Shown in pieces: positions 8,889-55,392 of a stretch of DNA of 64,000 bases. Positions within the stretch are counted from its first letter, which is position 1, and the number at the start of each line of letters is the position of its first letter. The notes under the pieces were generated by a model. It worked only from the letters and a program-made list of their open reading frames with translations. It did no database searches and had not been told where the DNA came from. The position numbers and the translations under genes were made by a program. Source of the stretch: Lysobacterales bacterium (GTDB lineage: Bacteria; Pseudomonadota; Gammaproteobacteria; Xanthomonadales; SZUA-5); contig JALHMG010000029.1 in NCBI GenBank assembly GCA_022844135.1, positions 300-64,299 on the forward strand, written 5' to 3'.

Positions 8889-11800
8889 CTACTCGAACCC
8901 GTTTCGGAACAGCCCGCGCAGGTCGGGACCGTCGGTGGCGACGTTCGACTGCAGGTCCGGGTCGGTGTACGGTGCCGGAAGGGTGGCCGAGACGAGCAGG
9001 CTTACGGGCGTCTCCGGTGTCGCGGCGACGGTGGCGGTGAGCACGAAGGTGACGCTGGAACCGGTGGGCAGGTCGATGGGCTCGATCAGCGCCAGTCCAT
9101 TGCCATTGGCAGCACAAACGCCGCCATTCTGGCTGGTGCAGGTCCAACTCGCCGCCGTGAAATCCGGGCCGAGCGTGCTGTCGAGGCGCACATCGGCGAC
9201 GCCCGAGGGACCGGTATTGCGGACCACAATCGTGTAGGTGGTTGGCATGCCGCCGGTGACGTAGCTGGTGCCGTTGGTTACAGTGACGACGACATCGGCC
9301 ACTGGCTGATCGGTCGGAATCACGCTGGCAGCCACGCTCGTGGCGCCGCTGCCAACCTCGTTGCGTGCGGTTACATGGCAGAGATAAAGCGTGCCGTTGG
9401 TCAACCCGATCACAGTCACTGGGGACGTCGCGCCCGTGGCTGTCACGCTGCCGGGCATGCACTGCACGGTGTAGTCCAGTATCGGCAGACCGCCGCTGTT
9501 AGTCGGCGGCGCGAACCGGAGGCTCGCCGACGCGTTTCCGGCGGCGGCACCGAGCAAACCGGGTGCGCCCGGTACGGTCGCTGGCGTGACGCTGGCCGAG
9601 GGCGCCGAGGGCAGGCTGTCGCCGATCGCATTGGTGGCGATGACGGTGCAGGTGACCGGTGTGCCGTTGGTGAGGCCGGTCACGACGAGCGGTGACGACG
9701 AGCCGCTCTGCGACTGCCATGCGCAGGTTGCGGTGTAGCCGGTGATCGCGCTGCCGCCGTTGTCGGTCGGCGGCACGAAGGCGACGCTCACCTGCGCGTT
9801 ACCGGGCGTAGCGACAACGCCGGTGGGCGCGCCGGGCACGGTTGCTGGTGTGACGCTGGCGGACGGTGCGGAAGCCGCGCTGTTGCCGATCGCATTGGTG
9901 GCGATCACGGTGCAGTTGACGGGCGTGCCGTTGCTGAGGCCGGTCACGACGAGCGGCGGGGCGGCGCCGCTCTGCGACTGCGATCCGCAGGTCGCCGTGT
10001 AGCCGGTGATCGCGCTGCCGCCGTTGTCGGTCGGCGGCACGAAGGCGATGCTGACCTGGGCGTTACCGGGCGTAGCGACAACGCCGGTGGGTGCGCCCGG
10101 CACGGTCCCCGGGGTGACGCTGGCGGACGGTGCGGAAGCCGCGCTGTTGCCGATCGCATTGGTGGCGATGACGGTGCAGGTCACCGCCGTGCCGTTGCTG
10201 AGGCCGGTCACGACCAGCGGCGACGCCGTGCCGTTCTGCGACTGCGAGCCGCAGGTGGCGGTGTAACCGGTGATTGCGCTGCCGCCGTTGCTGGTCGGCG
10301 CGACGAAGGCGACGCTGACCTGCGCGTTACCGGGCGTAGCGACCACGCCGGTGGGTGCGCCCGGCACGGTCGCCGGCGTCACGCTGGTCGAGGGCGCCGA
10401 CGGAGCGCTGTTGCCGATTGCATTCGTGGCGATCACGGTACAGGTGACCGGCGTGCCGTTGGTGAGGCCGGTCACGACCAGCGGCGAGGCGGCGCCGCTC
10501 TGCGACTGCGAGCCGCAGCTTGCGGTGTAACCGGTGATCGCGCTGCCGCCGTTGCTGGTCGGTGCGACAAAGGCCACGCTGACCTGGGCGTTGCCAGCCA
10601 CGACGCCGCTGATCGTCGGGGCACGCGGGACGGTGGTGCCGATGGTGATCTGGAAAGACTGGGTGGCACTGCCGGCGACATTGTTGCGGGCCCTGATGCT
10701 TCCGCCATAGGTGCCGAGCGCGGTCGGTGTACCGCTGATCACCGCGCCGTCCAGGGTCAGGCCGGGCGGCAGGGTGCCGGAGTCCAGCAGGAAACTCGCG
10801 GCCGGCAGGCCCGATGTGGTCAGCGTATGGCTGTAGGGCACGCCGAACAGACCGCCCGCGGGCGGGTCGCTCGTGTAGGCGGGCGCGCGTCCGCCGAGGC
10901 TGACAACGTGCCCCCCCAGTGTGTAAGAGTTAGCTGCGCCACCCAGGGTCGTGACCCCCACGATGGAATGGGTCGCTGTGCTGATGCGAGTGAATCGACG
11001 GCTGCCGAAGACATAGACCTCGCCGCCATCGGCGGACACGTCGACGCCCTGCACGCTGGAACCCGATACCGGTACCGTCGCCAGCACGGTGAGCGTGGCG
11101 GCATCGATCACCGCAAGCTGCGGGCTGGACTCGCTGACCACGTACACACGCCGGCTGTCTCGACTCACGACGACCCCTCTTCGGCCCGCGGCCGGGACGG
11201 CAACGTTGCCCACGACGCTCAGGCTCTCGACGTCGATCACGGTTATGCGATCGTTGAGCCGTTGGGGTGCATAGACGCGCCGTCCGTCTGGGCTGATGGC
11301 TAAAAACCTCATATCCGAGACGGCAATATCGGCGATCACCCGCTGCGCGGCGGTGTCGATCACCTTGATGGACGAGCCGCCAGTCACAAACAACCGCGAC
11401 CCGTCTGGCGTGATGGCCAAAGCAAAGGGTGCGACGAAACCGCCGATGGTCGCGATCACGGTGTTGCTGGCCGCATCAAGAACCGCTACGCCATTCCCTG
11501 TTGTGACGTAGACCCGCGTGCTGTCGGGCGATACCACGGCGCCTTGGGTCCAACTGCCCATCTCGACGCGTGCGATGGGCGCGCGAGTCAGGGTGTCGAT
11601 CACGTGGAGGCTCCCTTCGTAACTGGGCAGATACACGCGCGCGCCGTCGGGGCTTACGGCGGCGATACCATCGGGCGCGTTCGGCAGGGCGATGCTCTGC
11701 ACGACCGCGCCGGTGCTGAGATCCACGACCGCGACCGAGGCTGGATCGGAAATCGGAACGTACGCGAAGGCGCCTGGCAGCCCGGGCGTGACCGTGTTGG

Positions 11801-14453
11801 AAGCCGCCGAAGGCAGCCCGGTCGCAGTCACGGTGCAGTTCACCGGCGCGCCGTTGATCAGGCCGATCACCGAAATCGGCGATGCGCTGCCACTGGCACT
11901 GCGTGCGCCGCAGGTCGCGGTGTATTGGGTGGGTGGCAGGGTCACGTTGTTCGGGGGCACATTGAACGAAACGTGCACCTGGCCGTTTCCTGCCGTCGCG
12001 GTCACGCCGGTGGGCGTCGCCACTTGCAGTTCCAGGGCGCCCATGTCGCTGCCATTGCCGCCGCTGGCATTGGCCAGGTGCGAGAAGTCGATCGGGCGCG
12101 GCAGCCCGCGGCCATCGACCGCGCTCCCCGGGCCCGCGGCGTCGATGATCGGGCTGTCGCTGAGTGGCGCATGGGTCCGGGAATGGCCACCGTTGTCGGC
12201 CAAGGGCGCGAGGCGCGCCGGTACGCCCAGCAAGTTGCCGACCAGGCTGGGCGAGTTCGGTCTGAAGCTGGTGGCGAAGGGGTCGCCGATCAGGTTGTAG
12301 CCGAAGGACGTGAAGTTGCCGCCCGCATCCGGTGCCTGGGCCACCGTGCGTGTATTGTCGGCGATCACGCTGCCGCGCAGGTTGACGATGGCATCGAACT
12401 CGGCGGCGATGCCGCCGTTGAACTGGGCCGTATTCAAGGTCACGGTGGCGTGCGTCAGCGTGGTGGTGCCGGTGCCGCCCAGGTACATCGCGCCGCCGTT
12501 GTCGCCCGTGTTGCCGCTGAAGGTGGTGTGGGTCAGTGTTGCGCTGCCGTAGCTGTTGAGACCGCCGCCGATCGTGGCCCGGTTGCCGCTCAGGCTCACG
12601 CGATCCAGCACCAAGGTGGCGCCGCTGGGATTGCCGATGCCGCCGCCCGGGCCGGTGGCGATGTGGTTCTCGATACGGCTGTCGCGAATGGTGGCTGTCT
12701 TGCCAGGCTCGTTGAACAGGCCAGCGGAGTAATTGGCCCGGCAGCCCGACAAACGGCTGCGCGTGAGGGCAAGGGTGCCGTTGTTGTGGATGCAGCCGCC
12801 GCCGTTCGCCTGGCTGTCGTCGACCTGGATCTCGTTGGCATTGAGGGTGCCCAGATTGACCAGGATGGCACCACCGCCGAGGTTGGGCCCGGGATTGCCA
12901 CGGGTGAAGCGCATGCCGCTCAGGTGCAGCGTGGCCGGCGCGTCGACGTTGAGGTGGCGGCGTTGGTTGTTGGCGTCGAGCGTGAGCAGCCCGGCGCGCG
13001 GACCGAGGATCGTCAGCGTCTTGTTTACCACCAGCGTGCTGCCCAGCGTGATCGTCTGCGGATGATCGAAAAGGGGCCGCGCGAAGCTGATGACATCCCC
13101 GGGCATCGCATCGGCAATCGCCTGACGCAGGCTGCCGGCACCGCTGTCCTGTGCGTTGGTCACGACCACCGACCCCAGTTCGTAGGCGCCGATGTCAACG
13201 GCGCCGCCACGGCTGCGGGCGAAGCCGGCACCGCGCTGGTCGTTGGCCAGTCCCACACCCGGAAAGTCGCCGCAGCCGCTGGTGTTGAGGACGCATCCGG
13301 AACCCGCATCACGGGCAGGACTGTCCAGGTTCAAGGCAAGGGTCCGCGTGGCGCCGCCGTTGTCGGCCAGCGGGCCAACGCGTGGATCGGTGTTGTAGAT
13401 GTCGGTACCGGAAAGGTTGCCCTCGACATTGGCACCAACCCGGCTGCGGATCAGGTTGTGGCCGAGCGAGTAGATGCGGCCGAAGATGTCCGGGCTGGCG
13501 CCGGTGTTGTTGGCAATGATGGTGTTGACGACCTGGGTGTCGGAGGACGGATAGACATGCAGTCCGCCACCCTTGACGCCCGAATTGCCGACGATGGTGC
13601 TGTTGGCGATGCGCACCGGACCACCCAGCAGAAGAGCGCCACTCTCGGTGCTCTGGAAGGTGCGGTTGCCCACGAACGTCGAGTTCTCGATCCACAACGG
13701 TGCGCCGGACTGGATCGCCGCGGCGTACAACGATTCGTTGCCCTCGAACAGGGAGCCGCGGACCCGGAGTTCGCCGTCGGCCTTGATGGCCCCGAACTGG
13801 CCCAAGGTTCGCCCCGGCCCTGTCGGGTCAAGTACCCCGTTGCCGCGGAACACTGAGTCGGTGATCAGCAGTCGGCTGGGGAACTGCGGAGTGCCGACAC
13901 CCACGTGGATGCCTCCGGCACTGGAGGGGCCGTAGTTGCCCTCGAACAGCGTGCGGACGATCGTGACTTCACGAGCGCGAGTGTGGATCGCGCCGCCCGA
14001 GCCGCCCGAGCGATTGAAGCGAAACTGGGAATCCTGGATCAGCAACGCATGGCCCGGGCCGATGGCGATGGCGCCGCCGTCCGAGCCCGAAAACAGGTTC
14101 TCAAAGATCGCATTGCGGATCACGACCTCCAGAATGGTGTTGTTGTCGATGACCAGTCTCGGCAAGCGCGCGCCCGCGGCGTCGATGGTCACGCTTCGGG
14201 TGATTCCGGCACTGTCCACCGCGGTTGTTGCCACGGCGAATACGATGGTGTCGCCCGCCGGGGCGAGCCGGCTGATCGCACCCGGAAAGCTGCAATCGGC
14301 CGGCGCCGAAGTGCAGGCATTGAGCGCCGGATCCGCCGAGGTGCTGTCGACGGTCCACGTGGCGGCATGTGTCGTGCCGATGGCGAATGCGAGCAGCAGG
14401 AAGAGCGTATGTGCGATGAGGCGCGTTGAAACGCGGACAGTGACGTTGGACAT
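8889..14453 (-). CDS. Large (~1854 aa) secreted surface protein: two beta-helix/choice-of-anchor Q modules, FN3, YVTN beta-propeller, Ig-like, tandem FN3, DUF11, LFRNGFE tail
   Basis: GGAG RBS before ATG 14453 and a signal peptide. CSLREA-like CSFPGAI, two LADNGG..T...DIGAYE/DMGALE blocks, SPDGxRVY repeats, GNAQVSVAF repeats, TYTIVVRNTGP. The ORF-track extension to 15011 overlaps the kinase and is rejected. Confidence 0.9.
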   Translation of the reverse strand: MSNVTVRVSTRLIAHTLFLLLAFAIGTTHAATWTVDSTSADPALNACTSAPADCSFPGAISRLAPAGDTIVFAVATTAVDSAGITRSVTIDAAGARLPRLVIDNNTILEVVIRNAIFENLFSGSDGGAIAIGPGHALLIQDSQFRFNRSGGSGGAIHTRAREVTIVRTLFEGNYGPSSAGGIHVGVGTPQFPSRLLITDSVFRGNGVLDPTGPGRTLGQFGAIKADGELRVRGSLFEGNESLYAAAIQSGAPLWIENSTFVGNRTFQSTESGALLLGGPVRIANSTIVGNSGVKGGGLHVYPSSDTQVVNTIIANNTGASPDIFGRIYSLGHNLIRSRVGANVEGNLSGTDIYNTDPRVGPLADNGGATRTLALNLDSPARDAGSGCVLNTSGCGDFPGVGLANDQRGAGFARSRGGAVDIGAYELGSVVVTNAQDSGAGSLRQAIADAMPGDVISFARPLFDHPQTITLGSTLVVNKTLTILGPRAGLLTLDANNQRRHLNVDAPATLHLSGMRFTRGNPGPNLGGGAILVNLGTLNANEIQVDDSQANGGGCIHNNGTLALTRSRLSGCRANYSAGLFNEPGKTATIRDSRIENHIATGPGGGIGNPSGATLVLDRVSLSGNRATIGGGLNSYGSATLTHTTFSGNTGDNGGAMYLGGTGTTTLTHATVTLNTAQFNGGIAAEFDAIVNLRGSVIADNTRTVAQAPDAGGNFTSFGYNLIGDPFATSFRPNSPSLVGNLLGVPARLAPLADNGGHSRTHAPLSDSPIIDAAGPGSAVDGRGLPRPIDFSHLANASGGNGSDMGALELQVATPTGVTATAGNGQVHVSFNVPPNNVTLPPTQYTATCGARSASGSASPISVIGLINGAPVNCTVTATGLPSAASNTVTPGLPGAFAYVPISDPASVAVVDLSTGAVVQSIALPNAPDGIAAVSPDGARVYLPSYEGSLHVIDTLTRAPIARVEMGSWTQGAVVSPDSTRVYVTTGNGVAVLDAASNTVIATIGGFVAPFALAITPDGSRLFVTGGSSIKVIDTAAQRVIADIAVSDMRFLAISPDGRRVYAPQRLNDRITVIDVESLSVVGNVAVPAAGRRGVVVSRDSRRVYVVSESSPQLAVIDAATLTVLATVPVSGSSVQGVDVSADGGEVYVFGSRRFTRISTATHSIVGVTTLGGAANSYTLGGHVVSLGGRAPAYTSDPPAGGLFGVPYSHTLTTSGLPAASFLLDSGTLPPGLTLDGAVISGTPTALGTYGGSIRARNNVAGSATQSFQITIGTTVPRAPTISGVVAGNAQVSVAFVAPTSNGGSAITGYTASCGSQSQSGAASPLVVTGLTNGTPVTCTVIATNAIGNSAPSAPSTSVTPATVPGAPTGVVATPGNAQVSVAFVAPTSNGGSAITGYTATCGSQSQNGTASPLVVTGLSNGTAVTCTVIATNAIGNSAASAPSASVTPGTVPGAPTGVVATPGNAQVSIAFVPPTDNGGSAITGYTATCGSQSQSGAAPPLVVTGLSNGTPVNCTVIATNAIGNSAASAPSASVTPATVPGAPTGVVATPGNAQVSVAFVPPTDNGGSAITGYTATCAWQSQSGSSSPLVVTGLTNGTPVTCTVIATNAIGDSLPSAPSASVTPATVPGAPGLLGAAAGNASASLRFAPPTNSGGLPILDYTVQCMPGSVTATGATSPVTVIGLTNGTLYLCHVTARNEVGSGATSVAASVIPTDQPVADVVVTVTNGTSYVTGGMPTTYTIVVRNTGPSGVADVRLDSTLGPDFTAASWTCTSQNGGVCAANGNGLALIEPIDLPTGSSVTFVLTATVAATPETPVSLLVSATLPAPYTDPDLQSNVATDGPDLRGLFRNGFE
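9570..10635 (-). repeat. Four near-identical 264-bp (88-aa) FN3-coding tandem repeats
   Basis: The TVPGAP/TVPRAP boundary recurs at about 9567, 9831, 10095, 10359 and 10623. Antisense ORFs at 9742/10006/10270 show the same 264-bp period. Confidence 0.9.
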
Positions 14454-14495: not shown

Positions 14496-14530
14496 TGGAG
14501 CTAGCGAATTGGGAAGGGCAGAACTGTCAT
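14496..14530 (-). promoter_or_regulatory. Putative ECF promoter, class 1 (TGACAGT-N16-CGCTAG), upstream of the large surface protein
   Basis: Minus strand ATGACAGTT-CTGCCCTTCC-CAATTCGCTAGCTCCA matches 17365-17399 at both ends with identical spacing. Confidence 0.7.
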
Positions 14531-17244
14531 CGCGTCTGCAGGCGGGCGATCCGGGCTCGCCACGGCGAGTCGGCGACGATGCGGCCATCGATGTCGTCGA
14601 GGATCTGGCTGGCCAGCACCTGCGCTCCCGTCCTTCCCTGCGCGCCACCGCGCCGCGCCAGCCATTCGGCGCGGTCCAGTCTGGCCAGCGCCACGCGCGG
14701 ATCGCCGGCACTGACGGCCTCCTTCCAGGCTGCCTCAGCGGCAAGGAACGCATCGACGATGGCTGCCTCGTCATCGCCATCCGACCGCAGCAGCGCGCGC
14801 ACCTGAAGACGATGGGCATGCGTGGGCGTCGCCACGTCGAGCTTGGTGTCCTCGGCCAGGGCCAGCATCCGGTCTGCCTCTGCCCGCCGGCCAAAGCGCC
14901 AGTCAGCTTCCGCCAGCAGCACCCGCGTCTGTGCCAGGTCGACTGGACTTCCGGGTTGCTGTGCCGCCAGCACGCGCTCGGCCGATGCCAGCACGCGACT
15001 CGCCTCGGCATACGAAGTCATCGCCAGCAGCACTTGGCCGTGGTTGGTGCGCGCATTGGCGATGGCGGGGCTGCCCTCGCCCCAGGCGCGAGTCAGCGTC
15101 GCCAGTGCGCGCCGAAAGCTGCTGTCGGCCGCCTCCAGCGCTCCCGCTCGGAATTGGCTGCGCCCTTGGTTCTGAAGCAGCACCGCATGGTGCAGCGTGT
15201 CGGCGCCGAATTTGCGCTCCGCGAGCGCGACGGCTTCCGCGTACAGGGGCAGTGCCTCTTTACTGCGGCCGTCCGCATCGAGCACTGCGCCCAGCTCCGA
15301 CAGCCGCCAGGGCGTGTTGACATCATCCGCGCCGTGCAGCGCACGACGCCGTTCCAGTGCGTCCCGCAAGAGCGATTCCGCCGCTGGCAATTGCTTGCGC
15401 GCGACCAGCACGCGGGCCAGCACTTCCTGTGCATTGACCGTTTCGACACTGTGTTCGTCGTGAGCACGGAAAAGTGCATAGCTGCGACGCAGGTGTCGCT
15501 CCGCCTCGTCCAATTCACCCAACAGGTGCAACCCGCCACCCAGATCGAGCAGTGCAAAGGCGAGATCGGTCGCGTTCGGACCGTTGCTCTCCGCGTCGGC
15601 TAACGCCGACCGTAATAACGCCAGTCCTTCGGCAGACTGCGGCGTGTTCAACAGAGTCTGGCCGAGCAGTCGCATGGCCTGTTGTCGCTCGCCGGCCGGA
15701 GCATCCGGGCCCAGCGCCTGGTACAAGGCGAGCGCCTCGCGGGCGTGCGTCAAGGCTGCGTCGGTGGCGCCGTTCTGGCGTACGTGGCCTGCCAGCCGCA
15801 GCGCACTGCGTGCCAGCGGCAACGGGCGTCCCAAGGTGCGCTCGATCGCCACCGCGCGTTCGAAGCTGTTCTGCGCCGCCTCGGGAATCCGCAACTGCGT
15901 TTGGACGTTTGCCAGCGTGGTGTACAACTCCGCCTGCATTGCCGGCTGCCCGGCGAGCTCAGTTTCGATGCGCGCCAGCGCCTGTTCGACCAGCTGGCTG
16001 ACAGGCACTTCCGCGCCGCCAGCGTCTGGATTGGCGCCGTCCAGTATCGAGACCACGAAATCGCTGACCTGGCGGGCTGCCTGCTCGGCCGCCGTTGCGC
16101 GATCGCGTTCGGCGAGCGCCCTTTGTTCGGCGGCCAGCGCGCGATCGCGGTCACGCGCCAGTTGCACCGTGAAGCCGATGACGACCAACGCGAACAGGGC
16201 CGAGGTCAACGCCCATGGCCACCGGCGTTGCAACCATTTGCGGGTGCGATAGCCGACGTGCGCTGGAACGGCCTGCAGCGGCAAGTGCTCTAAATAGCGC
16301 TGCAGGTCTGCGCCGAGCGCGGCGATCGATTCATATCGTGCCGAGGACTCGGTGGCCGTCGCCCGCGCCACGATGGCGCGCAATTCGTGGTCGATAGCGA
16401 TGCCGGACTGCAGCGCCAGATGTTCGATCAGTCGCCCGAGGCTGTAGACGTCTGTGCTGGTACTGATGGCGCCGCCCGATTGCTGTTCGGGGCTGGCGAA
16501 TCCCGGCGTGAAGGCGCGCGCCCGTTGTGAGGTTGAGGAGGCGGGCCCGCGGGCGGCATCGCCGAGCACGCGGGCGATACCGAAATCGAGCAGAAACGGA
16601 TGCCCATCGGCTCGCACCAGAACATTGCTGGGTTTGAGATCGCAGTGGACCACAAGCCGTGTATGGGCGTAGGCCACCGCTCCACAGATCGGCAGCATCA
16701 AGCGCAACAGCGCCCGCGCGTCTGGACGCCGTTCGCGACACCAGCGGTCGATCGGCATGCCTTCCAGATATTCCATCACCAGGAACGGCTGCCCTTGTGG
16801 TGTGGTGCCGCCATCCAGCAAGCGTGCGATGTTCGGGTGTGCGAGGCCGGCCAGTATCTGGCGTTCCCGGGCCAGGTATTCCAGAGCCGCCGCGCTCGGC
16901 AGCCCACGCAACACCTTGACGGCCGCATCTTGCTCGAAATGTCCATCGCTGCGGCGCGCTGCGTAAACCGTGCCCATGCCGCCTTCGCCGATTTTGTGCG
17001 CCACCGTCCAGGCGCCGAGCTGGGTTTGAGGCGCTGGTGTGTCGGAGGCCAAGGCGCCCATCAATGCCATCACCGGCGCATTGACGTCCTGTGTGGTCGG
17101 AGACAGCGACAACATCGAACGCACCAGGGCGAGCAGCTCCGGGGCCGCGTCGCTGGCGGCGAGCGCACGTTCCTGTTCGGCCGGATCGAGATCGACCAAC
17201 GCGTCGTACAGCGCGCGAACTCGCCCGTACGCCTCAAGGTTCAC
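14527..17244 (-). CDS. Hanks-type Ser/Thr protein kinase with TM helix and C-terminal TPR repeats
   Basis: GEGGMGTVY, AVK, HCDLKPSN (non-RD), DFG, ASPEQ. TM WPWALTSALFALVVIGFTV followed by TPR-like helices. GGAGG RBS before GTG. Confidence 0.92.
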   Translation of the reverse strand: MNLEAYGRVRALYDALVDLDPAEQERALAASDAAPELLALVRSMLSLSPTTQDVNAPVMALMGALASDTPAPQTQLGAWTVAHKIGEGGMGTVYAARRSDGHFEQDAAVKVLRGLPSAAALEYLARERQILAGLAHPNIARLLDGGTTPQGQPFLVMEYLEGMPIDRWCRERRPDARALLRLMLPICGAVAYAHTRLVVHCDLKPSNVLVRADGHPFLLDFGIARVLGDAARGPASSTSQRARAFTPGFASPEQQSGGAISTSTDVYSLGRLIEHLALQSGIAIDHELRAIVARATATESSARYESIAALGADLQRYLEHLPLQAVPAHVGYRTRKWLQRRWPWALTSALFALVVIGFTVQLARDRDRALAAEQRALAERDRATAAEQAARQVSDFVVSILDGANPDAGGAEVPVSQLVEQALARIETELAGQPAMQAELYTTLANVQTQLRIPEAAQNSFERAVAIERTLGRPLPLARSALRLAGHVRQNGATDAALTHAREALALYQALGPDAPAGERQQAMRLLGQTLLNTPQSAEGLALLRSALADAESNGPNATDLAFALLDLGGGLHLLGELDEAERHLRRSYALFRAHDEHSVETVNAQEVLARVLVARKQLPAAESLLRDALERRRALHGADDVNTPWRLSELGAVLDADGRSKEALPLYAEAVALAERKFGADTLHHAVLLQNQGRSQFRAGALEAADSSFRRALATLTRAWGEGSPAIANARTNHGQVLLAMTSYAEASRVLASAERVLAAQQPGSPVDLAQTRVLLAEADWRFGRRAEADRMLALAEDTKLDVATPTHAHRLQVRALLRSDGDDEAAIVDAFLAAEAAWKEAVSAGDPRVALARLDRAEWLARRGGAQGRTGAQVLASQILDDIDGRIVADSPWRARIARLQTR

Positions 17245-17364: not shown

Positions 17365-17399
17365 TGAAGCTAGCGGATTGCCGAACGGGAAACTGTCAT
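17365..17399 (-). promoter_or_regulatory. Putative ECF promoter, class 1 (TGACAGT-N16-CGCTAG), upstream of the kinase
   Basis: Minus strand ATGACAGTT-TCCCGTTCGG-CAATCCGCTAGCTTCA; twin of 14496-14530. Confidence 0.7.
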
Positions 17400-17520: not shown

Positions 17521-18087
17521 TCAGCCTTGGCGCAGGTGCTGCTGCACCCAGACGCGTGCGAAACGCAAGTCGCGATCGACCGTCGCCAGCGACAGCTTCA
17601 GCACATCTGCAATTTGCTGCCGGTCCAGGCCGGCGAAGCAATTCAGGTGCAACACATCGGCGCAGCGCGGGTCCAGCGCCGCCAGTTGCGCCAGACTCTG
17701 ATCGAGCGCTACGACATCAGCGACGATCGATTCCTCGCCGCCAATCGCTTCCGACATACTCACCTGGATGTCGCCGCTGCCGCGTTTGGCCGCCTGCCGG
17801 GCGCGGGCGTGATCGACCAGCGCCGAGCGGATGTACAGCGACATGCCCGCATAGAAATGCTCACGGTTCATGAACGCCACGTCGCCGACTGCGATTCGCA
17901 GATACGCTTCGTGCAGCAGGGCGGTGGGCGAAAGCGTGCCTGGCCAGTCGGCTTGCCGCAGGCGCTGCGACGCTATGAGCTTCAGCTCGTCATAGGCGAG
18001 CTCAAAGGCTGCCGCTACAGCATCCTTCTCGCCATCACGCCAGGACTGCAATAGCTGAGTCAGTTCGACATGCGCCGGCGAGGCCAT
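17521..18087 (-). CDS. ECF sigma factor, TIGR02999/ECF43-like (kinase-associated)
   Basis: ELTQLLQSWRDG, AYDELKLIA, TLSPTALLHEAYLR, LVDHARARQAAKRG, TVDRDLRFARVW. Adjacent to a Ser/Thr kinase. Confidence 0.9.
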   Translation of the reverse strand: MASPAHVELTQLLQSWRDGEKDAVAAAFELAYDELKLIASQRLRQADWPGTLSPTALLHEAYLRIAVGDVAFMNREHFYAGMSLYIRSALVDHARARQAAKRGSGDIQVSMSEAIGGEESIVADVVALDQSLAQLAALDPRCADVLHLNCFAGLDRQQIADVLKLSLATVDRDLRFARVWVQQHLRQG

Positions 18088-43307: not shown

Positions 43308-43346
43308 CCAGGCATCAAAACACCGCAAAGCCTGTCGCAGCAAGCC

Positions 43347-46259: not shown

Positions 46260-46769
46260 TTAGGTTCGCGCTTTCCGCCATCGCCAGATCGTGCCCACCT
46301 CGCTATTCGGATACGCGCCGACGAAACTCATTCCCGATTTGACCAGCACCGAATTCGAAGCATTTCGCTCGGCCAAGGTGTGCGCAATGACGCTCTGGAT
46401 GCCAGGCGCCGCAAAGGCCCTGGCCATTAGCCACGCGACCGCCGCCGTTGCGAAACCCTGACGGCGAAAAGCCGGGGCGACCTCGTAGCCGATCTCGATC
46501 TCGCCATCGCGAGGCGCGCCGCAGTAGCCACCGTTGCCGACCACAAGGCCGCGTTCGCGGGAAACGAAAAAGTACGCCGGCCATTCCGGTGTTGCCGGGT
46601 CTGGCGAGTCGGGGTCGAACGCCTCAGGGAAGGCTGGCCATTGGTCGGGCAAGTCGAAGCCGAGTAAGGCTGCCAGCTGCGCGCGGCCGCTCGCCAGTGC
46701 AGCCTTGTGCACGCGGCGAACTTCGATGAACGCCAGTGACCGGCTTGGGGATTCAATCGTCTGTGGCAT
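46260..46769 (-). CDS. GNAT (RimJ/RimL-type) N-acetyltransferase
   Basis: VVGNGGY, EIEIGYEVAPAFRRQGFAT, NASNSVLVKSGM. Confidence 0.88.
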   Translation of the reverse strand: MPQTIESPSRSLAFIEVRRVHKAALASGRAQLAALLGFDLPDQWPAFPEAFDPDSPDPATPEWPAYFFVSRERGLVVGNGGYCGAPRDGEIEIGYEVAPAFRRQGFATAAVAWLMARAFAAPGIQSVIAHTLAERNASNSVLVKSGMSFVGAYPNSEVGTIWRWRKART

Positions 46770-46791
46770 CGGCGCGGTGGTCGGAGGGCGG

Positions 46792-48667: not shown

Positions 48668-48694
48668 AGACGAATGCCGGGGCTCGGCTTTCTC
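48668..48694 (-). promoter_or_regulatory. Putative ECF promoter, class 3 (GAGAAA-N14-TTCGTCT)
   Basis: Minus strand GAGAAA-GCCGAGCCCCGGCA-TTCGTCT upstream of the Calx-beta gene; twin of 46127-46153. Confidence 0.65.
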
Positions 48695-48981
48695 ACCGGA
48701 ACGCAACATCGTGCATCGGCGCGCTGACGCGCTGCGCACGGCAGTGACGGGTCAGTCTGCGATGGCAGCGTCGATCTCGCTCAGGACGCGATCGCGGAGC
48801 CGCGCTAATCGGTCGACGTAGTCGTTGTGCCGGTCTTCGAGCTGGCCGACCTTGCTGTCGAGCGCGCTCAACCTGTCGGCAGGGGTAGCACCCGCGCAAA
48901 GGCTCCAGCGCCGCGCGCGTTGACTTCGCGGCCGAACGGCGGGCACCATGCAGTTTACTCAGGCGCTCGGTTTTGCCATTC

Positions 48982-49512
48982 ATGACTGGCGGCAATGCCC
49001 CTTTGCCCGACCATCCGATTGCGGTGGATGCGGCGTTCGAGGCCGACTATCAGCGCCTGAAGGCGATGGCGCATCGGGAGCTGGCGCGCGGTCAGCCGGT
49101 CACTGTCGGCACCACGGAGCTGGTGCACGAGCTGTACCTCAAGCTGGGGAACGACCTGCAGTTCGGCGCGCCCGATCAGTTCTTTACGTACGCCGCGCGG
49201 GCGATCCGGCACATCCTGGTCGACCGCGCGCGGCACCGGCTCAGTTTCAAGTCGGGCGGCGATCGGCTGGCGGTGTCGCTCACTGATCCGGCCGTCGATG
49301 CGGTTGCCGTGGAGCCCGAGCTGGCGCTGCTGCTCGATCGTGCTCTCGACGAGTTGGCGGCGGCGAATCCGCGTGCAGCGAAGGTCGTCGAGCTGCACTA
49401 TTTCGCCGGGCTGGGTCTGGAGAAGGTGGCGCAATTGTTGGGTGTGGTGCGGCGCACCGTCGATCGCGACTGGCGTCAGGCGCGCGCTTATCTCTTATCG
49501 CAAGTGGAGTAG
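48982..49512 (+). CDS. ECF sigma factor, TIGR02999/ECF43-like (kinase-associated)
   Basis: YQRLKAMAHREL, TVGTTELVHELYLKL, AIRHILVDRAR, VVELHYFAGL, TVDRDWRQARAYL. Confidence 0.9.
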   Translation: MTGGNAPLPDHPIAVDAAFEADYQRLKAMAHRELARGQPVTVGTTELVHELYLKLGNDLQFGAPDQFFTYAARAIRHILVDRARHRLSFKSGGDRLAVSLTDPAVDAVAVEPELALLLDRALDELAAANPRAAKVVELHYFAGLGLEKVAQLLGVVRRTVDRDWRQARAYLLSQVE

Positions 49513-49518: not shown

Positions 49519-49550
49519 TGTCGCATTTGCGATTCGGACTGCGTTACTCG
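49519..49550 (+). promoter_or_regulatory. Putative ECF promoter, class 2 (TGTCGCA-N16-CGTTRCTCG), upstream of the kinase
   Basis: TGTCGCA-TTTGCGATTCGGACTG-CGTTACTCG; twin at 52990-53021. The ATG lies 10 nt after CGTT with no SD, so it may be leaderless. Confidence 0.7.
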
Positions 49551-49555
49551 CTGCC

Positions 49556-52318
49556 ATGAATGCCGATCGCGAACCGATCACCGCCGACGTCCTGGCGCAA
49601 GCCTGTGCGCTATTCGATCGTTGCGTCGACTTGCCTATCCCGGAGCGGGAGGCGCTGCTCGATACCGAGCGGCCGGCGCAGCCGGTGACAACCCTGCTGC
49701 GATCGATGCTCGCCGCTGATGGCCGCAGCGGCGATCCCTTCGAAACGCCGGCGGCGGTCTGGGCCGCGCAATTGCACGTCGATACCGAGGTGGTAGACGA
49801 GCTGATCGGCCAATTCATCGGCGACTTCAAAATCATCGCGCGGCTCGGTCAGGGTGGGTCGTCGGTGGTGTTCGCGGCCGAGCGCGATGTCGCGGGGGCA
49901 AAGCAGCGCGTCGCTCTGAAGCTGCTGCGCACCGGGCTGTTCTCGAACGAGGCGAGGCGCCGATTTCGTCGCGAACAAGCGATTCTCGCTCAGCTCACGC
50001 ATCCCAATATCGCGCGCCTGATCGATGCCGGCGTCAGCGCGACGGGTATTCCTTACATCGCCATGGAACTGGTCGACGGCCGCCCGTTGCTCGACGATGT
50101 ACGCGCCCGCGCGCTGGACATGCCGGCGCGGCTGCGACTGCTGGCTGAGGTCGCGCTGGCCGTCGATGCGGCGCATCGCGCCCTGATCGCACATCGCGAT
50201 CTCAAGCCGGCCAATGTTCTGGTCGACCAGGACGGTCGGGTGAAGGTGCTGGACTTCGGCATCGCCAGGCTGATCGACGACGACGATCCCACCCAGACTC
50301 AGCACATCGCACTGACGCCCGGCTATGCGCCGCCCGAGCAATACCGGCAGGGCGCGCCGACCACGGCGATCGACGTGTATGCGCTGGGCGTCATTGGCGC
50401 GGAGTTGGTCGTCGATGCGCGCCTGGGCCCCGATGCGCGAGTCCAGCCGGGGCCGGACGCGAGCGCCATCCGGGCGCGCTGGCAGGCGCTCGACGCCGAT
50501 CTGGCCACTCTGCTGCGCACCGCGCTCGCCGAGGATCCGCGGCGGCGTTACGCGTCCGCGCGCCATCTGGCCGACGACATCGGCCGCTATCTGGCGCGCG
50601 AGCCGATCGCCGCTCACCCGCCGTCCCGAGCCTACCTGGCGCGTAAATTCCTGGCGCGCCATCGTGTCGGCGTGGCCGTTGGTGCGGCGATGCTGGCCAC
50701 CCTGGTAGTGGCCTTCGCGCTGGTGCTGGCGCAGCGCGATCTGGCGCGCCAGCAGGCCGCGCGGGCCGACAGCATGCGCGACTTCATGTTCGCCGCATTC
50801 GCCGAGGCCGAACCCGGCGGCGAGCGTGATGGGCCGGCAACCGTGCTCGACGCGGTGCGTCGGGCTGTCGCGACGAGCGATGCCGATCCCGGCGCCGATC
50901 CGCAAGCCCGACTCGAGCTGCGGCTGCGCCTCGCGCAAGTGCTGCAGCGTCAGGGCGATCTTGGCGGCGCGCGCAGGCTGATCGAGGATGTGCGGCAGGA
51001 GGCTGGCGAACGCTGGGGCCCGACCAGCGCGCTGGCGATGGATGCCGCGATCCAACGAGTGGGAAACAGCATGGCGCAAGGCGAGTTTGCGCAGGCACGA
51101 GCCGAGCTCGATGGCGTGCCGCCGCCGACCGACGACTTGCGCGACCAGGCAGAGCGGCTGGCCGTGTCGGCGGTGCTCGCCTCGCGCGTGCGCGATCTGG
51201 CGCGGGCGCAGACCGATGGCGCGGCGGCGATGGCGCTGGCGCGCCGCAGCGGCGATGCGGAGACGATCCGCACCACGCTCAACGACTGGGGCGTCGTGTT
51301 GCTCGCATCCGATCGGTTCGCGGATGCCGCCGTCGCCTACGAAGAACTCCTGGCGCTCAATCGCGCGCGCTTCGGCGAGCGCCATGTTCGCGTGGCCAAC
51401 GTGCACGCCGCGCTGGCGCGCGCCTACCGACGCAGCGGTGACCTGGATCGAGCAGAAGCGGCGGCGCGGCTGGCTGTGGAGATCGATCGAGCGATCTACC
51501 CCGGCGACGATCGTCATGCGGCGGTGAACCTCAACGCGCTGATGATGGTGCTGCGCGAGCGCGGCGATCTGGATGCGGCACTGCCGGTGGCGCGCGAGGC
51601 CTTGCGCATCAATCTCGCTACGCTCGGCGAAGGCCATCCGGAGACCGCACTGGCGCGTTATGGTGTGGGCGATCTGCTGGCTGCGCGCGGCGATTACGCC
51701 GAAGCAGCGACGCTGCTGGCTGAAAGCCTGGCCGACTATGAACGCGAATTTGGTGCGAATCATTGGCGCGCGGCGGCGGCGCGCACGGCTTACGGATTTG
51801 CGCTTGGCATGAGCGGTTCGATGTCGGCTGGGGTCGCCGAGCTGGAGCAGGCGATCGACGCGCTGCGCGCGCTGCCCGAGGGCGACCCGGATCGATTGTG
51901 CGGCGCCATCGAACGGCGCGCGCGTCTGGCGCAACAAGCAGGCGATGTCGCTGCCGCACTGCTGTGGCTGGATCGGCTGCAGGCCGCCGATCGCGATCCG
52001 CCGCCGACCCGCGCGTGCTGGCCAGGCAATGTCGACGTGCGGCGCGCAGCGGTAGCGCTCGATGCGGGCCGTTACGCGGATGCCGACGCAGCGCTGCAGC
52101 GAGCCAAACCGCTGCTAGTGCAGCTTGGTGGTTCGAACCCTCTGGTGCGCGTTGAACATGCGCTCTTGCAGGCGCTGCTGTTGGATGCCCTGGGCCAACC
52201 GGTAGCCGCAGCAGCAGCCGAGGCAGAGAGGCAACTCGCCCGTTTGCCCAGCATTCCCGCGACGCTGCGCAATTCAGCCGCAGCGCTGCGCGAGCGGCGT
52301 CAACCGAGCGACGATTAA
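49556..52318 (+). CDS. Hanks-type Ser/Thr protein kinase with TM helix and TPR repeats
   Basis: GQGGSSVVF, VALK, HRDLKPAN, DFG, YAPPEQ. TM VGVAVGAAMLATLVVAFALVLA, then LGEGHPET-type TPRs. Confidence 0.92.
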   Translation: MNADREPITADVLAQACALFDRCVDLPIPEREALLDTERPAQPVTTLLRSMLAADGRSGDPFETPAAVWAAQLHVDTEVVDELIGQFIGDFKIIARLGQGGSSVVFAAERDVAGAKQRVALKLLRTGLFSNEARRRFRREQAILAQLTHPNIARLIDAGVSATGIPYIAMELVDGRPLLDDVRARALDMPARLRLLAEVALAVDAAHRALIAHRDLKPANVLVDQDGRVKVLDFGIARLIDDDDPTQTQHIALTPGYAPPEQYRQGAPTTAIDVYALGVIGAELVVDARLGPDARVQPGPDASAIRARWQALDADLATLLRTALAEDPRRRYASARHLADDIGRYLAREPIAAHPPSRAYLARKFLARHRVGVAVGAAMLATLVVAFALVLAQRDLARQQAARADSMRDFMFAAFAEAEPGGERDGPATVLDAVRRAVATSDADPGADPQARLELRLRLAQVLQRQGDLGGARRLIEDVRQEAGERWGPTSALAMDAAIQRVGNSMAQGEFAQARAELDGVPPPTDDLRDQAERLAVSAVLASRVRDLARAQTDGAAAMALARRSGDAETIRTTLNDWGVVLLASDRFADAAVAYEELLALNRARFGERHVRVANVHAALARAYRRSGDLDRAEAAARLAVEIDRAIYPGDDRHAAVNLNALMMVLRERGDLDAALPVAREALRINLATLGEGHPETALARYGVGDLLAARGDYAEAATLLAESLADYEREFGANHWRAAAARTAYGFALGMSGSMSAGVAELEQAIDALRALPEGDPDRLCGAIERRARLAQQAGDVAAALLWLDRLQAADRDPPPTRACWPGNVDVRRAAVALDAGRYADADAALQRAKPLLVQLGGSNPLVRVEHALLQALLLDALGQPVAAAAAEAERQLARLPSIPATLRNSAAALRERRQPSDD

Positions 52319-52421
52319 GGCGCAACGACCAGCGCACAAGTCCTCGGACGAAGGGCGTGAGGTTTGACAGCGCCAGGTCGCGAACCTGATCTTACCCTTG
52401 TCTTACGTTGGCAGCGCTGTC

Positions 52422-52685
52422 ATGGAAACCACCAGGCTCTCCAGCAAAGGTCAGGTCATCATTCCCAAGGCTTTCCGGCGTTCTCACCGCTGGGAGCCCG
52501 GCCTTGAACTGATGGTCATCGACACCGGAGAAGGGTTGTTGCTGAAACCCAAGGCTCCGTTTCCGCCCTCCAATCTCGCGGACGTTGTTGGCATGTTCAA
52601 GAACAAGGTTTCGCCCAAGACCGATGCCGAGATTCAAGCGGCGCTGACGGCGGACTTGCGGAGAATTTGGCGTGATCGCCATTGA
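52422..52685 (+). CDS. AbrB/MazE/SpoVT-family antitoxin
   Basis: METTRLSSKGQVIIPKAFR...WEPG...EGLLLKP. Confidence 0.88.
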   Translation: METTRLSSKGQVIIPKAFRRSHRWEPGLELMVIDTGEGLLLKPKAPFPPSNLADVVGMFKNKVSPKTDAEIQAALTADLRRIWRDRH

Positions 52686-52862
52686 TACCAAGGTCCTGGT
52701 CCGACTTCTGGTCAACGACGATCCGGCACAGAGCAAAGCCAGCCAACGGTTGTTCGCATCCGAGGACGTTTTTATGCCGGGCGGGATTCGTTGAAGACCT
52801 TCGATGCCGGGTTTATCAAGGTCGCCAGGAAACACACCAGCCAGCGCGTAGAACGGCCCTGA
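52672..52862 (+). pseudogene. vapC: VapC/PIN toxin remnant (internal deletion plus frameshift)
   Basis: GTG 52672 gives MIAIDTKVLVRLLVNDDPAQSKASQRLFASEDVFMPGGIR-stop (52794). A second frame gives LKTFDAGFIKVARKHTSQRVERP-stop (52862), a typical PIN C-terminus. The middle is missing. Confidence 0.8.
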
Positions 52863-52989: not shown

Positions 52990-53021
52990 TGTCGCAAACC
53001 GCATCCATCGCTCGTTGCTCG
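52990..53021 (+). promoter_or_regulatory. Putative ECF promoter, class 2 (TGTCGCA-N16-CGTTRCTCG), upstream of the beta-helix protein
   Basis: TGTCGCA-AACCGCATCCATCGCT-CGTTGCTCG; twin of 49519-49550. Confidence 0.7.
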
Positions 53022-53058
53022 GTTCAACTCGCCGACGAACCCTTCGAGGATGCACGCC

Positions 53059-55392
53059 ATGTTCAACGCCATTCGATTCTGCCAAACGCTGATCTTGCTG
53101 ATGTCCGGTGTTGTTGCCGGCTCGGCTTCGGGTGCAACTTTTCTGGTGGGAACGGGCGCAGGCTGCAATTTCAATACGATCCAGGCTGGCATCAATGCCG
53201 CCGCCGCCAATCCCGGTGCCGATGTTGTGCGGATATCGAATGCCACCACCTGGGGCCCGGCGGGCGTGACCATCGGCCAACAGGACGTCACGCTGGACGG
53301 GCGGTTTGCGACCTGCACCGACAGTGTCGCGAACGGGAACTACGCGCAGCTGGTCGGTAACGCCGTCAATCCGGACAGCAGGCCGGCGATGATCAGCGTG
53401 ACCGGCAGCGGTGTCCGTCGACTGATCGGTCTGCAAATCCGCAACAACGTGCGTGGCCTGAACTTGAATGGCGGTGCCATCGCACATTCGGGAACCGGCG
53501 AGCTGATCCTGAGCGAGATGGATCTGCGCGACAATCGTGCGCAGTCGGGTGGCGCCATTTACAGCACGGGCGGGATCGTGACCCTGTCGAACCGCGTGCT
53601 GATCGAAAACAACATCGCCGATTTGAGCGGCGGTGGCATTGGCCTCGGCGGCGGCGTGCTGTTCGCCGTCGGCTCGGATCTGTCGATTGCCGGTAACGAA
53701 GCTTATCGCGTGGGTGGTGGACTAATCCTCGCGGGATCGTCGCAAGCCTATATCGCCTCGCCTGGATTCGGCAGCCGGGCGGTACTGCAGTCGAATCGCG
53801 CCGGCATTTCTTTCGATGCCGGCGCGACCAGCGGCGGCGCCGTCGGTTTCGGCGTTTCGTTCGGCGCCAGGCTAGTGGTGTATTCGACAAGCGCCAACGC
53901 GCCGACGCGGATCGCCGACAATCTGGCGCGCGACAATGGCGGCGCTGTTTACCTAGGCGATTCGCTCGCGGGCGAATCGGCGACCGTGTGCCTGATGGAC
54001 GTGCACCTGTCCGCCAATCGCGCCAACGGTGGCGCCGCGCTGTACGCCGAAACCGCCAACGACACCAACAGCAGCGTGGTCTACAACCGGCCCACGGCCG
54101 CCGAATGCAGCGTTCCGGCGAACGCACCGGCGCCGCCGGTGCGCTGCAATCGCAGTGTGATCGGCTGCAATACGATCGAGGGCCACATCACCCAACTGCC
54201 CGGCGGCGCGCCGAGCGGCGGCGGCGTGGTCACCGTTCGCAGAAACCTCAAACTCACCATGCGCGATGCCAGATTGCTCGACAACTCGGCGGGGTTCGTG
54301 TTGAGCGCCACCGACGCTGCTCAGGTCGACGTCAACACCGCGCTGATGGCTGGCAATACGGTGTCTGGCAGCATCGTCCGGCTGGGATTTGCGCTCAGCA
54401 ATCAAGGTCTGGCGATGCGCAACCTGACGATCGGCGGCAACACGTTCACTGGCGCATCCGGCAATCCCAGCATCATGCTCGATACCGCGCCCGCCACGGT
54501 TGATTTCAACAACAATCTGATCTTTCAGCCGGGCCGCACGGCGTTGGTCAGCACTTTCGCTCTCACCAACGCCAACTTCGATTGGCGCTTCAACGCCACG
54601 AACACGCCTCAGGTGTTGCCGAACCCGCAGCAAGCCGTGTTCAGCGATGCGCGCTTCGAAAATCCCGCCGTCGGCGACTATCGTTTGCGAATCGGATCGG
54701 ACGCGGTCAACGCCTTCGCCGCCGGACCGGCTATCGATGCCAACCTCGATCTGGACGGCCGCTCGCGGCCGATTGAACTGAGCATTCTTGCGCCTGAACT
54801 CAGCAGAGACGACCTGGGCGCGTTCGAGCGCCAGGAGGGCGATATCTGGCTGGTCAATGGCTCGTTCTCGGCGACATCGCAACTGCGCTATTGGGAACCC
54901 AGCGCCAACGGCGAAGCGATTCCGGGGGTGGTCTGGGATGCGCAAGACGCCGTCGGCAACCCGAACTCCGGATCGGCACTGGTGAATCTTCCGGCCTCTC
55001 TGGCGCCTCGACTCACCGTGCTGCGGCGCTGCTTCAACGTACCGGGTCCCGGTCGCTATACCATCACCGCCATGGCCCAGCGCGGCAGCGGTTTGAACGC
55101 GGACGACGCCAGGCTGAGTTGGCGATTTCGAGTCAACGATGCCACTTGTACCGCTGCGGACGTGCAGGGCAGCGGCGAAGTGGCCTTCGTCACCGGCAAC
55201 CTGTTTCAACCGCTCGCCGCGCCGCTCGCGATCGATCTCGCGTCCACCACATCCAACTCGACGATCGAGATTCGTCTCGACGCGGTCAGTGGCTTGAACC
55301 TCAACGGACTCACGAACATTCGCTTCGACGACATCGCTATTGGCGGCTCACCGCTGCGCCCCGATGGCATTTTTGCCAGCAGCTTCGAATGA
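53059..55392 (+). CDS. Secreted beta-helix protein with choice-of-anchor Q-like and CBM-like C-terminal domains, IFASSFE tail
   Basis: GAGGA RBS, signal peptide, CNFNTIQAGINAA, GGAI repeats, DYRL..GSDAVN...DLDGRSR...DLGAFE, LVNGSF...RFDDI, then PDGIFASSFE-stop. Confidence 0.85.
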   Translation: MFNAIRFCQTLILLMSGVVAGSASGATFLVGTGAGCNFNTIQAGINAAAANPGADVVRISNATTWGPAGVTIGQQDVTLDGRFATCTDSVANGNYAQLVGNAVNPDSRPAMISVTGSGVRRLIGLQIRNNVRGLNLNGGAIAHSGTGELILSEMDLRDNRAQSGGAIYSTGGIVTLSNRVLIENNIADLSGGGIGLGGGVLFAVGSDLSIAGNEAYRVGGGLILAGSSQAYIASPGFGSRAVLQSNRAGISFDAGATSGGAVGFGVSFGARLVVYSTSANAPTRIADNLARDNGGAVYLGDSLAGESATVCLMDVHLSANRANGGAALYAETANDTNSSVVYNRPTAAECSVPANAPAPPVRCNRSVIGCNTIEGHITQLPGGAPSGGGVVTVRRNLKLTMRDARLLDNSAGFVLSATDAAQVDVNTALMAGNTVSGSIVRLGFALSNQGLAMRNLTIGGNTFTGASGNPSIMLDTAPATVDFNNNLIFQPGRTALVSTFALTNANFDWRFNATNTPQVLPNPQQAVFSDARFENPAVGDYRLRIGSDAVNAFAAGPAIDANLDLDGRSRPIELSILAPELSRDDLGAFERQEGDIWLVNGSFSATSQLRYWEPSANGEAIPGVVWDAQDAVGNPNSGSALVNLPASLAPRLTVLRRCFNVPGPGRYTITAMAQRGSGLNADDARLSWRFRVNDATCTAADVQGSGEVAFVTGNLFQPLAAPLAIDLASTTSNSTIEIRLDAVSGLNLNGLTNIRFDDIAIGGSPLRPDGIFASSFE

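Follow-up and report, generated by a model that had tools for sequence, protein, structure and literature searches.

Three ECF sigma factor modules with candidate promoters at genes of GFE-tailed secreted proteins in a Lysobacterales genome

The closest described relatives of the genes analyzed here are the pairs of an ECF43-type extracytoplasmic function (ECF) sigma factor and a receptor Ser/Thr kinase known as EcfK/PknS in Xanthomonas citri and EcfP/PknT in Vibrio parahaemolyticus, and the DdvS/DdvA system of Myxococcus xanthus. To our knowledge, ECF43 sigma/kinase pairs are widespread and only two of them have been studied; the literature searched, as far as its accessible text goes, gives no target promoters for the studied pairs. 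In this work we describe three ECF sigma modules in a 64,000-nt stretch of a Lysobacterales bacterium (the whole stretch, G000:C29:300-64299, is called the window below), two of them of the ECF43/kinase type and one with a presumed anti-sigma factor and a secreted CHAT protease, which adjoin genes of secreted proteins that end in Gly-Phe-Glu or a variant of it (the GFE tail). We consider it probable that these modules are three self-contained ECF circuits, each recognizing a promoter of its own for the expression of one or two dedicated tail-tagged secreted proteins. The regulatory logic of the modules is familiar; their interest lies in three concrete and conserved promoter candidates with defined target genes for ECF43-type and other ECF signaling, in sigma modules that are candidates for orthogonal switches, and in a C-terminal tag that ~70 secreted proteins per genome share throughout the lineage.

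Sigma modules and their described relatives

Module 1 is encoded on the reverse strand by sig1 (17521-18093), kin1 (14527-17244, GTG start) and surf1 (8889-14453), and module 2 on the forward strand by sig2 (48973-49512), kin2 (49556-52318, ATG start) and surf2 (53050-55392). Like EcfK and EcfP, the products of sig1 and sig2 pass the curated cut-offs of both PF07638 (131.4 and 103.8 bits, respectively; cut-off 21.1) and TIGR02999 (176.4 and 143.1; cut-off 126.15). The sigma2.2 contexts given in the available parts of two reports are QTTA for the ECF43 consensus, QATE for EcfK and STTA for EcfP (PMC13147305, PMC8999054). Assigned by eye and not by a family alignment, the Thr of this region is present in both sigmas of the window, as in EcfK and EcfP: the acidic DAED is replaced by SPTA in sig1 (context LSPTALLHEAYL), and sig2 has GTTE (GTTELVHELYL), which keeps one Glu as EcfK does.

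The PknS-like kinases encoded by kin1 and kin2, with Pkinase and TPR domains, share with PknS an N-terminal extension of ~80 residues, a kinase domain, one transmembrane (TM) segment and periplasmic TPRs. The kinase domain of kin1 spans residues 80-280 and is followed by a TM-like segment at 345-363; the corresponding segment of kin2 (373-391) lies between the kinase domain and the TPR array, and the TPR_12 domain scores 81 and 80 bits in the two proteins. The catalytic motifs of kin1 are GEGGMG, AAVK, HCDLKPSN, DFG and SPE, and those of kin2 include VALK, HRDLKPAN and DFG; unlike PknS, kin1 thus has HCD in place of HRD, with Arg changed to Cys. As in the known ECF43 pairs, each kinase gene lies directly downstream of its sigma gene, and no anti-sigma gene accompanies them. 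sig1/kin1 and sig2/kin2 have the sequence-level defining features of ECF43/PknS-type pairs.

The two modules differ from EcfK/PknS and EcfP/PknT in that their outputs would be single adjacent secreted proteins with a GFE tail, and not type VI secretion system or polymyxin-resistance genes, and in that the candidate sigma-type promoter lies in front of the kinase gene, with none before the sigma gene. The genome, assembled to 5.34 Mb in 75 contigs (~65% G+C), also differs in the number of such genes, with ~27 sigmas of this type and ~57 kinases. These numbers come from 33 PF07638 matches, of which the best 27 were used (the six dropped have E-values of 5e-9 or weaker), and 65 Pkinase matches, of which 57 were used after second stretches within one open reading frame (ORF) and weak matches were set aside; there are also six CHAT proteins. 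This is a large signaling expansion for a genome of 5.3 Mb.

The presumed output of module 1, surf1, is a secreted protein of 1854 aa with a signal peptide and the C-terminal end FRNGFE. Its start is the ATG at 14453, the ORF start at 15011 not being genuine, and its domains in Pfam and NCBIfam are choice-of-anchor Q, beta-propeller repeats, four fn3 domains and DUF11. The fn3 region (9475-10530) consists of four head-to-tail units of 264 nt (88 codons), which are so alike that they produce many exact repeats and open frames of equal length on the opposite strand. The presumed output of module 2, surf2, is a secreted protein of 780 aa that ends in FASSFE and matches no family in Pfam or NCBIfam.

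Module 3, on the reverse strand, is of a different kind. The gene gfe3b (43347-46097, GTG start) encodes a secreted protein of 916 aa that ends in LADGFE and belongs to no known family in Pfam and NCBIfam; sig3 (42807-43343), which starts 3 nt past the gfe3b stop, encodes a canonical ECF sigma that comprises regions 2 and 4, has the acidic DADE in sigma2.2 and matches neither PF07638 nor TIGR02999. It is followed by anti3 (42230-42814), the gene of a presumed anti-sigma factor of 194 aa with a Cys-rich N-terminus (Cys at 16, 23, 48 and 51, the last in CTRC), a single TM segment (82-100) and a periplasmic C-terminal domain, and, 4 nt further on, by a separate ORF for a secreted helical-repeat/CHAT protease of 645 aa (40288-42225; PF12770, 140 bits over residues 360-644). 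The latter has a signal-peptide-like segment at its start and, by visual assignment, both residues of the catalytic dyad, His in HIAAH and Cys in LSGCAS. A second tail gene, gfe3a (46792-48543), encodes a secreted Calx-beta protein of 583 aa ending in FNNGFE; its start was taken at the Met before the signal peptide, since the longer ORF from 48696 contains the motif described below.

The combination of an ECF sigma, a single-pass membrane protein with a Cys-rich cytoplasmic N-terminus and a periplasmic helical-repeat/CHAT protein with His and Cys resembles DdvS/DdvA. According to the accessible text of the report on that system, DdvA is a TPR-CHAT protein fused to the anti-sigma factor (PMC11506125). 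In module 3, by contrast, the CHAT protein is separate and secreted, and the fused architecture is absent; the presumed sig3 regulon would comprise two proteins with a GFE tail and the operon of sig3 itself, and not CBASS (cyclic oligonucleotide-based antiphage signaling) or CRISPR defense genes as for DdvS. Module 3 may therefore work like DdvS/DdvA without being a member of that system.

The three modules had been proposed in an earlier note made from the letters of the window alone, and our Pfam and NCBIfam profile searches of the window proteins agreed with it for every gene that it named. Its placement of the TPR-like arrays outside the cytoplasm also fits the positions of the TM-like segments in both kinases and of the signal-peptide-like segment in the CHAT protein.

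Motifs at the sigma modules and their conservation

Each module carries its own two-block motif in two copies with fixed spacing, as the note had described; in a whole-genome pattern search each full pattern had just two occurrences in the 5.34 Mb, both on the strand that encodes the downstream genes. One copy in each of modules 1 and 2 precedes the kinase gene, and the sigma gene has none.

In module 1 the sig1-kin1 spacer of 276 nt contains ATGACAGTT-N10-CAATNCGCTAGCT (17368-17399, reverse strand) ~124 nt before the kin1 GTG, and ATGACAGTT-N10-CAATTCGCTAGCT (14499-14530, reverse strand) extends across the kin1 stop codon to within 46 nt of the surf1 ATG. The 21-position motif has these two exact copies and no further match in the genome at up to four mismatches; its short form, TGACAGT-N16-CGCTA, stands before both kin1 and surf1. 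The order sigma-kinase-surf1 is kept in two other genera, represented by genomes G024 and G003, whose surf1 orthologues end in ...GPDIRGLFRDGLE and ...GPDVRGVFRNGFE, respectively. In G024, where the module 1 genes have ~70% DNA identity to those of the window, the motif ATGACAGT-N-TTCCGCTAGCTC is found at both places, in the sigma/kinase spacer and before surf1; in G003 the sigma and kinase genes overlap without a spacer, and CTGACAGTT-N-ATCCGCTAACA precedes the surf1 orthologue. Across five whole genomes the short form has 13 sites (2-4 in each) vs 3 for the reversed control. The additional sites precede a surf1-like gene in G003, genes of two tail-like secreted proteins in another genome (G038), a DUF11-type protein ending in ...FRDEFE and a protein ending in ...ANGFEP, and, in both G024 and G003, an orthologous gene of a small secreted protein. 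Separately, a repeat of ~30 nt, TTCCAGTTATTTTTGGGACACCACACTAGCT, gives with its close variants seven matches at three mismatches to the module 1 pattern in the genome of the window (C7:43939, C10:56976, C19:9632, C23:86504, C39:35516, C53:8554 and C62:155) and is probably the end of a mobile element or a repetitive extragenic palindrome (REP)-like repeat.

The module 2 motif, TGTCGCA-N16-CGTTNCTCG, occurs on the forward strand in the 43-nt sig2-kin2 spacer (49519-49550), with its CGTT 10 nt before the kin2 ATG, and again upstream of surf2 (52990-53021), with CGTT 33 nt before the ATG. The sig2-kin2-surf2 triad is kept in four genomes of three other families (G035, G026, G037 and G038), and the five genomes have TGTCGCA-N16-CGTT where the sigma and kinase genes meet and in front of each neighboring surf2 paralogue, which makes 11 sites. 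Genome-wide the pattern has 2-4 sites per genome, two or three of them inside the module; a further site in G026 lies 76 nt before an unlinked surf2 paralogue, so that motif 2, like motif 1, is also found before unlinked paralogues of its target genes. A wider set of 19 loci with kin2 relatives (three of them the same contigs as G038, G035 and G026) was taken from public records of Lysobacterales, namely Rhodanobacteraceae, Tahibacter, Rudaea, Pseudolysobacter, Pseudofulvimonas and Dokdonella, and contains 28 sites vs one for the control in 241,591 bases; the records of Tahibacter and Pseudofulvimonas have module 2. Twenty-five of the 28 sites are on the gene strand, and 12 of the 17 loci that include the junction have a site there. 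Nine loci have sites past the kinase gene, mostly before ORFs that end in GFE, GFQ or GFE plus one or two residues. The distance from CGTT to the kinase start is 9-11 nt in seven loci (those of the window, G038, G026, G037, L047, L049 and L050) and 31-34 nt in five. In one record of a Rhodanobacteraceae metagenome-assembled genome (L053, 3715-3741) the first module is followed by another kinase gene with a site in front of it, an arrangement suggestive of tandem modules with a common type of promoter.

The module 3 motif, GAGAAA-N14-TTCGTCT, occurs on the reverse strand before gfe3a (48668-48694) and before gfe3b (46127-46153), where it ends ~30 nt upstream of the GTG start; GAGAAA-N15-TCGTC is its short form at both genes. 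A congeneric genome (G001) keeps gfe3b-sig3-anti3-CHAT with identities of 92, 81, 70 and 72%, respectively. With the short form fixed in the genome of the window, G001 (4.7 Mb) was found to have four sites, two of them at the predicted kind of place: one before the gfe3b orthologue and one before a different, divergent GFE-tail gene. The intergenic DNA around the motif aligns poorly between the two genomes, and a global alignment of the gfe3b upstream regions was discarded, as the two motifs, which lie at unequal distances from the start codon, were not aligned with each other. In two more distant genomes, G018 and G038, a sig3-type sigma, a large CHAT protein, a gfe3b homologue and, in G038, an anti3 homologue occur together in another order. 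The anti3 homologues adjoin those of sig3 in G001 and G038, and the latter has a similar Cys pattern. At one of these distant loci (L027, G018:C20, 5139-8907) an anti-sigma-like ORF of 761 codons, with a TM segment after ~90 residues, overlaps a CHAT ORF of 1047 codons in another frame, which is either a fused DdvA-like protein with an assembly frame error or two overlapping genes. Only 6 of 301 genomes searched across the order have the gfe3b family; given the constant company of gfe3b, one may speculate that it is part of the device and not a mere output.

The uniqueness of the motifs within the genome proves little, because the patterns were derived from the pairs themselves. All three are above chance because they recur at the same positions in orthologous loci of other genomes. 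Other counts were of no use: an unrestricted search for two-block repeats returned 14,532 repeated 7+7 keys in the window, an abundance expected by chance, and simple match counts for the motifs were equally uninformative.

The C-terminal GFE tail and its genomic neighborhood

Likely coding ORFs of the genome, selected with custom filters on the G+C content of third and second codon positions (GC3/GC2) and not with a gene caller, have GFE as their commonest C-terminal tripeptide (44 of 2744 ORFs of at least 150 aa; the next has 13). The tail pattern [FLIVM]xx[GSANTR]FE fits 69 ORFs, whose last nine residues follow D-x-[LVI]-[FL]-[AR]-[ND]-G-F-E, and by a crude test 56 of these 69 have an N-terminal hydrophobic stretch vs 1113 of 2297 ORFs overall. 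At the DNA level, (N/D)GFE followed by a stop codon occurs 69 times vs twice for the reversed control. The same pattern is found 14-71 times per genome in all 24 genomes of the same family, and five genomes from other families of the order have 71, 51, 37, 29 and 26 copies; it is absent from the two genomes of family f2, and in 149 other families of the class (two of the genomes are unpublished) its counts are 0-6, the same as for the control. Among the genomes sampled, the tail is confined to this order. Variants of it are GFQ, GFD, GLE and GFE followed by one or two residues.

The PEP-CTERM/exosortase, LPXTG/sortase, GlyGly-CTERM/rhombosortase and MYXO-CTERM systems, too, are marked by a short conserved motif at the C-terminus of numerous Sec-exported, repeat-rich proteins within one lineage. 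A further likeness is the choice-of-anchor Q domain, present by NCBIfam in three of the six tail proteins of the window, whose name reflects its occurrence with varied C-terminal anchors. Unlike sortase- or exosortase-type signals, GFE stands at the very end: all 69 tails end with FE at the stop codon, with no TM helix or cluster of basic residues after GFE, and no sorting-domain model of NCBIfam matches the tail proteins of the window. The tail is not described in the literature searched.

Within 2.5 kb of tail genes only kinases recur as a gene family, and no candidate processing enzyme emerged there. The window itself encodes, on the reverse strand, a protein with PDZ, alpha/beta-hydrolase (S33/S9-like) and FG-GAP regions (30200-32764) and an adjoining S41 peptidase (32689-34026). 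Recognition of protein C-termini is common among PDZ domains and S41 peptidases, and these two genes are candidates for reading the GFE tail. The six tail genes of the window compare with ~0.8 expected from the genome average; besides those of the three modules, two forward-strand ORFs, 2322-2837 (ending in VFRNGFE) and 5486-6976 (ending in VFRDGFE), have choice-of-anchor Q directly before the tail and no sigma gene beside them.

Sigma-kinase modules and tail genes are neighbors more often than expected. A co-oriented kinase gene lies within 2.5 kb of 20 of the 27 PF07638-type sigma genes, and a tail gene lies within 0.5, 1.5 and 3 kb of 6, 7 and 8 of these 20 modules, as compared with 1.5, 1.9 and 2.5 expected. 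With 5000 random placements in this one genome, the adjacency at 500 bp (6 of 20 vs a mean of 1.51) has P = 0.0016, and P is about 0.001-0.002 across distances. The comparison with chance that the earlier note had called for across genomes came out, in this genome, in favor of adjacency, at P of about 0.002.

Regulatory readings and neighboring genes

ECF promoters consist of a -35 element and, after about 16-17 nt, a -10 element of CGT type. Because of their two-block geometry, orientation and position near the starts of genes, and because each of them tracks one sigma orthogroup, the motifs are most likely promoters of sig1, sig2 and sig3. By analogy with EcfK/PknS and EcfP/PknT, the sigmas of modules 1 and 2 would be made constitutively and stay inactive until the neighboring kinase, sensing an input through its periplasmic TPR array, phosphorylates the Thr of sigma2.2. 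The active sigma would then read the promoter before the kinase gene, a positive feedback on the sensor, and the second promoter before the adjacent secreted protein, the output. Where CGTT lies 9-11 nt before the start, the spacing suggests that the kin2 mRNA would have almost no leader. In module 3, sig3 would be held by the single-pass anti3, and the secreted CHAT protease is the likely periplasmic trigger, which by analogy with DdvA might cut the anti-sigma or a partner; freed sig3 would read GAGAAA-N15-TCGTC before the presumed gfe3b-sig3-anti3-CHAT operon (autoregulation) and before gfe3a. Control of the sigmas by the kinases and the CHAT protease, and display of the products at the surface, are presumed in this scheme.

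The motifs could instead be operator sites of another regulator, a repressor or activator encoded elsewhere, and not promoters of the neighboring sigmas. The absence of a motif before the sigma genes, which is unusual for ECF sigmas, and the gene of a LytS-type histidine kinase beside module 1 (18989-20161) would fit such a regulator. However, each motif is asymmetric, with its two blocks held apart by an invariant 15-16 non-conserved bases; the motifs lie 8-150 nt ahead of a gene start and on the strand of that gene, as is the geometry of ECF promoters; and each of them follows a single sigma orthogroup through many genomes, so that we regard an operator role as unlikely.

Several observations weigh against the proposed circuits. 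That the adjacent sigma, and not another of the ~27 paralogues, reads each motif is something we infer from co-conservation only. Within the genome of the window the statistics are compelling for the module 1 pair alone: when block scores were compared among 13 upstream regions (78 pairs), it ranked first with 44.9, the module 2 pair scored 29.8 (rank 13 of 78), within background, and the module 3 pair was outside the top 14. A joint consensus of motifs 1 and 2 has 28 matches at the N17 spacing vs 35, 16, 28 and 10 at other spacings, so there is no family-wide ECF43 promoter motif. The kinase start abuts or overlaps the sigma stop in 15 of the 20 sigma-kinase modules, and an internal kinase promoter is therefore no general rule. 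Six other sigma loci within ~3 kb of tail genes show no common junction/target motif, scoring 22-27.5 in that test vs 43.9 for module 1 and 29.6 for module 2. No surf1-type gene follows the sig1-kin1 orthologues in G035. The module 2 motif is missing from 5 of the 17 kin2-relative loci that include the junction, and four ORFs behind its sites lack a GFE-like end (...DEGGE, ...SEGGE, ...GNFDQ and ...DTGPD). anti3 matches no anti-sigma family of Pfam or NCBIfam, including one for the zinc-binding N-terminal domain of DdvA-type anti-sigmas, and pattern searches did not find the module 3 motif at the distant loci of G018 and G038, so that its support comes from one congeneric genome. As to RNA, two metatranscriptome runs matched a small share of the window (0.14 and 0.05), covering parts of kin2 and the antitoxin region described below, with contigs that are 90-99% alike to the window and cannot show transcript starts, strand or level. 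Finally, the sense-and-display wiring suggested in the note is partly supported for the three modules, in which a motif of its own links each module to the neighboring tail genes and is conserved across genera or families, but not for the 12 of 20 sigma-kinase modules without a tail gene within 3 kb. The design is conserved for these orthogroups and not for the whole sigma-kinase set of the genome.

A broader proposal is tentative, and we rate it well below the three circuits themselves: DxhFx(N/D)GFE-COOH could be an undescribed export or anchoring tag of Lysobacterales, and the ECF43-kinase pairs could be private sensors, each of which turns on a tail-tagged adhesin-like protein of its own from a private promoter and has its signal amplified by a sigma-dependent, nearly leaderless kinase transcript. 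The promoters described here, the feedback on the kinase and not the sigma gene, and the pattern of one module to one secreted protein are absent from the literature searched in its accessible parts; predicted ECF promoter motifs may be listed in the supplement of PMC7826278.

The note had also raised the possibility of feedback, with the GFE tail of an exported protein as the ligand of the periplasmic TPR arrays, so that each sensor would monitor its own product. C-terminal peptides of unassembled outer-membrane proteins activate an ECF sigma in the DegS/RseA/sigmaE system, which is the closest precedent for a periplasmic C-terminal peptide switching on such a sigma; the modules here differ in having no PDZ protease, their sensors being TPR kinases or a CHAT protease. 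C-terminal peptides are possible ligands of TPR domains, and the arrays and the tail-bearing proteins meet in the periplasm. The TPR regions also resemble the TPR protein of the NCBIfam FxSxx-COOH system, although at 45 and 72 bits vs a cut-off of 300 bits this is a generic TPR likeness, and a complex predicted between the periplasmic part of kin2 and the C-terminal 40 residues of surf2, which scored 0.01 against a mark of 0.32 and was modeled without controls, counts neither way. Against the idea stand the near-identical tail on ~69 proteins, which could not give 20 kinases distinct inputs, the runaway loop that would follow if a sigma were activated by its own induced product, and the location of 61 of the 69 tail genes away from any sigma-kinase module. 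We found no support for the tail as TPR ligand and consider it still less probable than an operator role of the motifs.

Least probable of all is a reading in which the module 1 motif alone is real, those of modules 2 and 3 arose by chance, and the rest of the wiring is ordinary gene neighborhood in a variable region where sigma-kinase pairs and tail genes are both abundant: the background-level block scores of these two pairs, the abundance of two-block repeats and the choice of patterns after the pairs had been seen would allow it, but the patterns were fixed in one genome and then found at predicted places in others, module 2 with two or three sites where predicted in each of the genomes G026, G035, G037 and G038 besides its excess over the control in the Lysobacterales loci, so that for this module the chance reading is close to refuted, and module 3 at two predicted positions among the four sites of G001.

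A gene for a MazE-type antitoxin (52398-52685, forward strand; Pfam) is inserted between kin2 and the surf2 promoter candidate without being part of the module, and an ORF of 40 codons after it (region 52398-52794, forward strand) resembles the start of a PIN toxin by eye, without a Pfam match. In G038, G026 and other genomes the motif-2 promoter candidate lies ~100-200 nt past the kinase stop, as compared with the arrangement with the antitoxin insertion in the window. Between gfe3a and gfe3b lies a GNAT acetyltransferase gene (46260-46805, reverse strand; Pfam) with an uncertain start codon. Just downstream of surf1 is a gene resembling the type II secretion system pseudopilin G (7066-7830, reverse strand), in which the N-methylation motif begins at residue 122 of the longest ORF. 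The forward-strand gene at 23014-28683 encodes a secreted protein of 1889 aa with seven Calx-beta domains, Big_3_5 and DUF11, which is built like the tail proteins and ends in ...LQSAAL in place of GFE.

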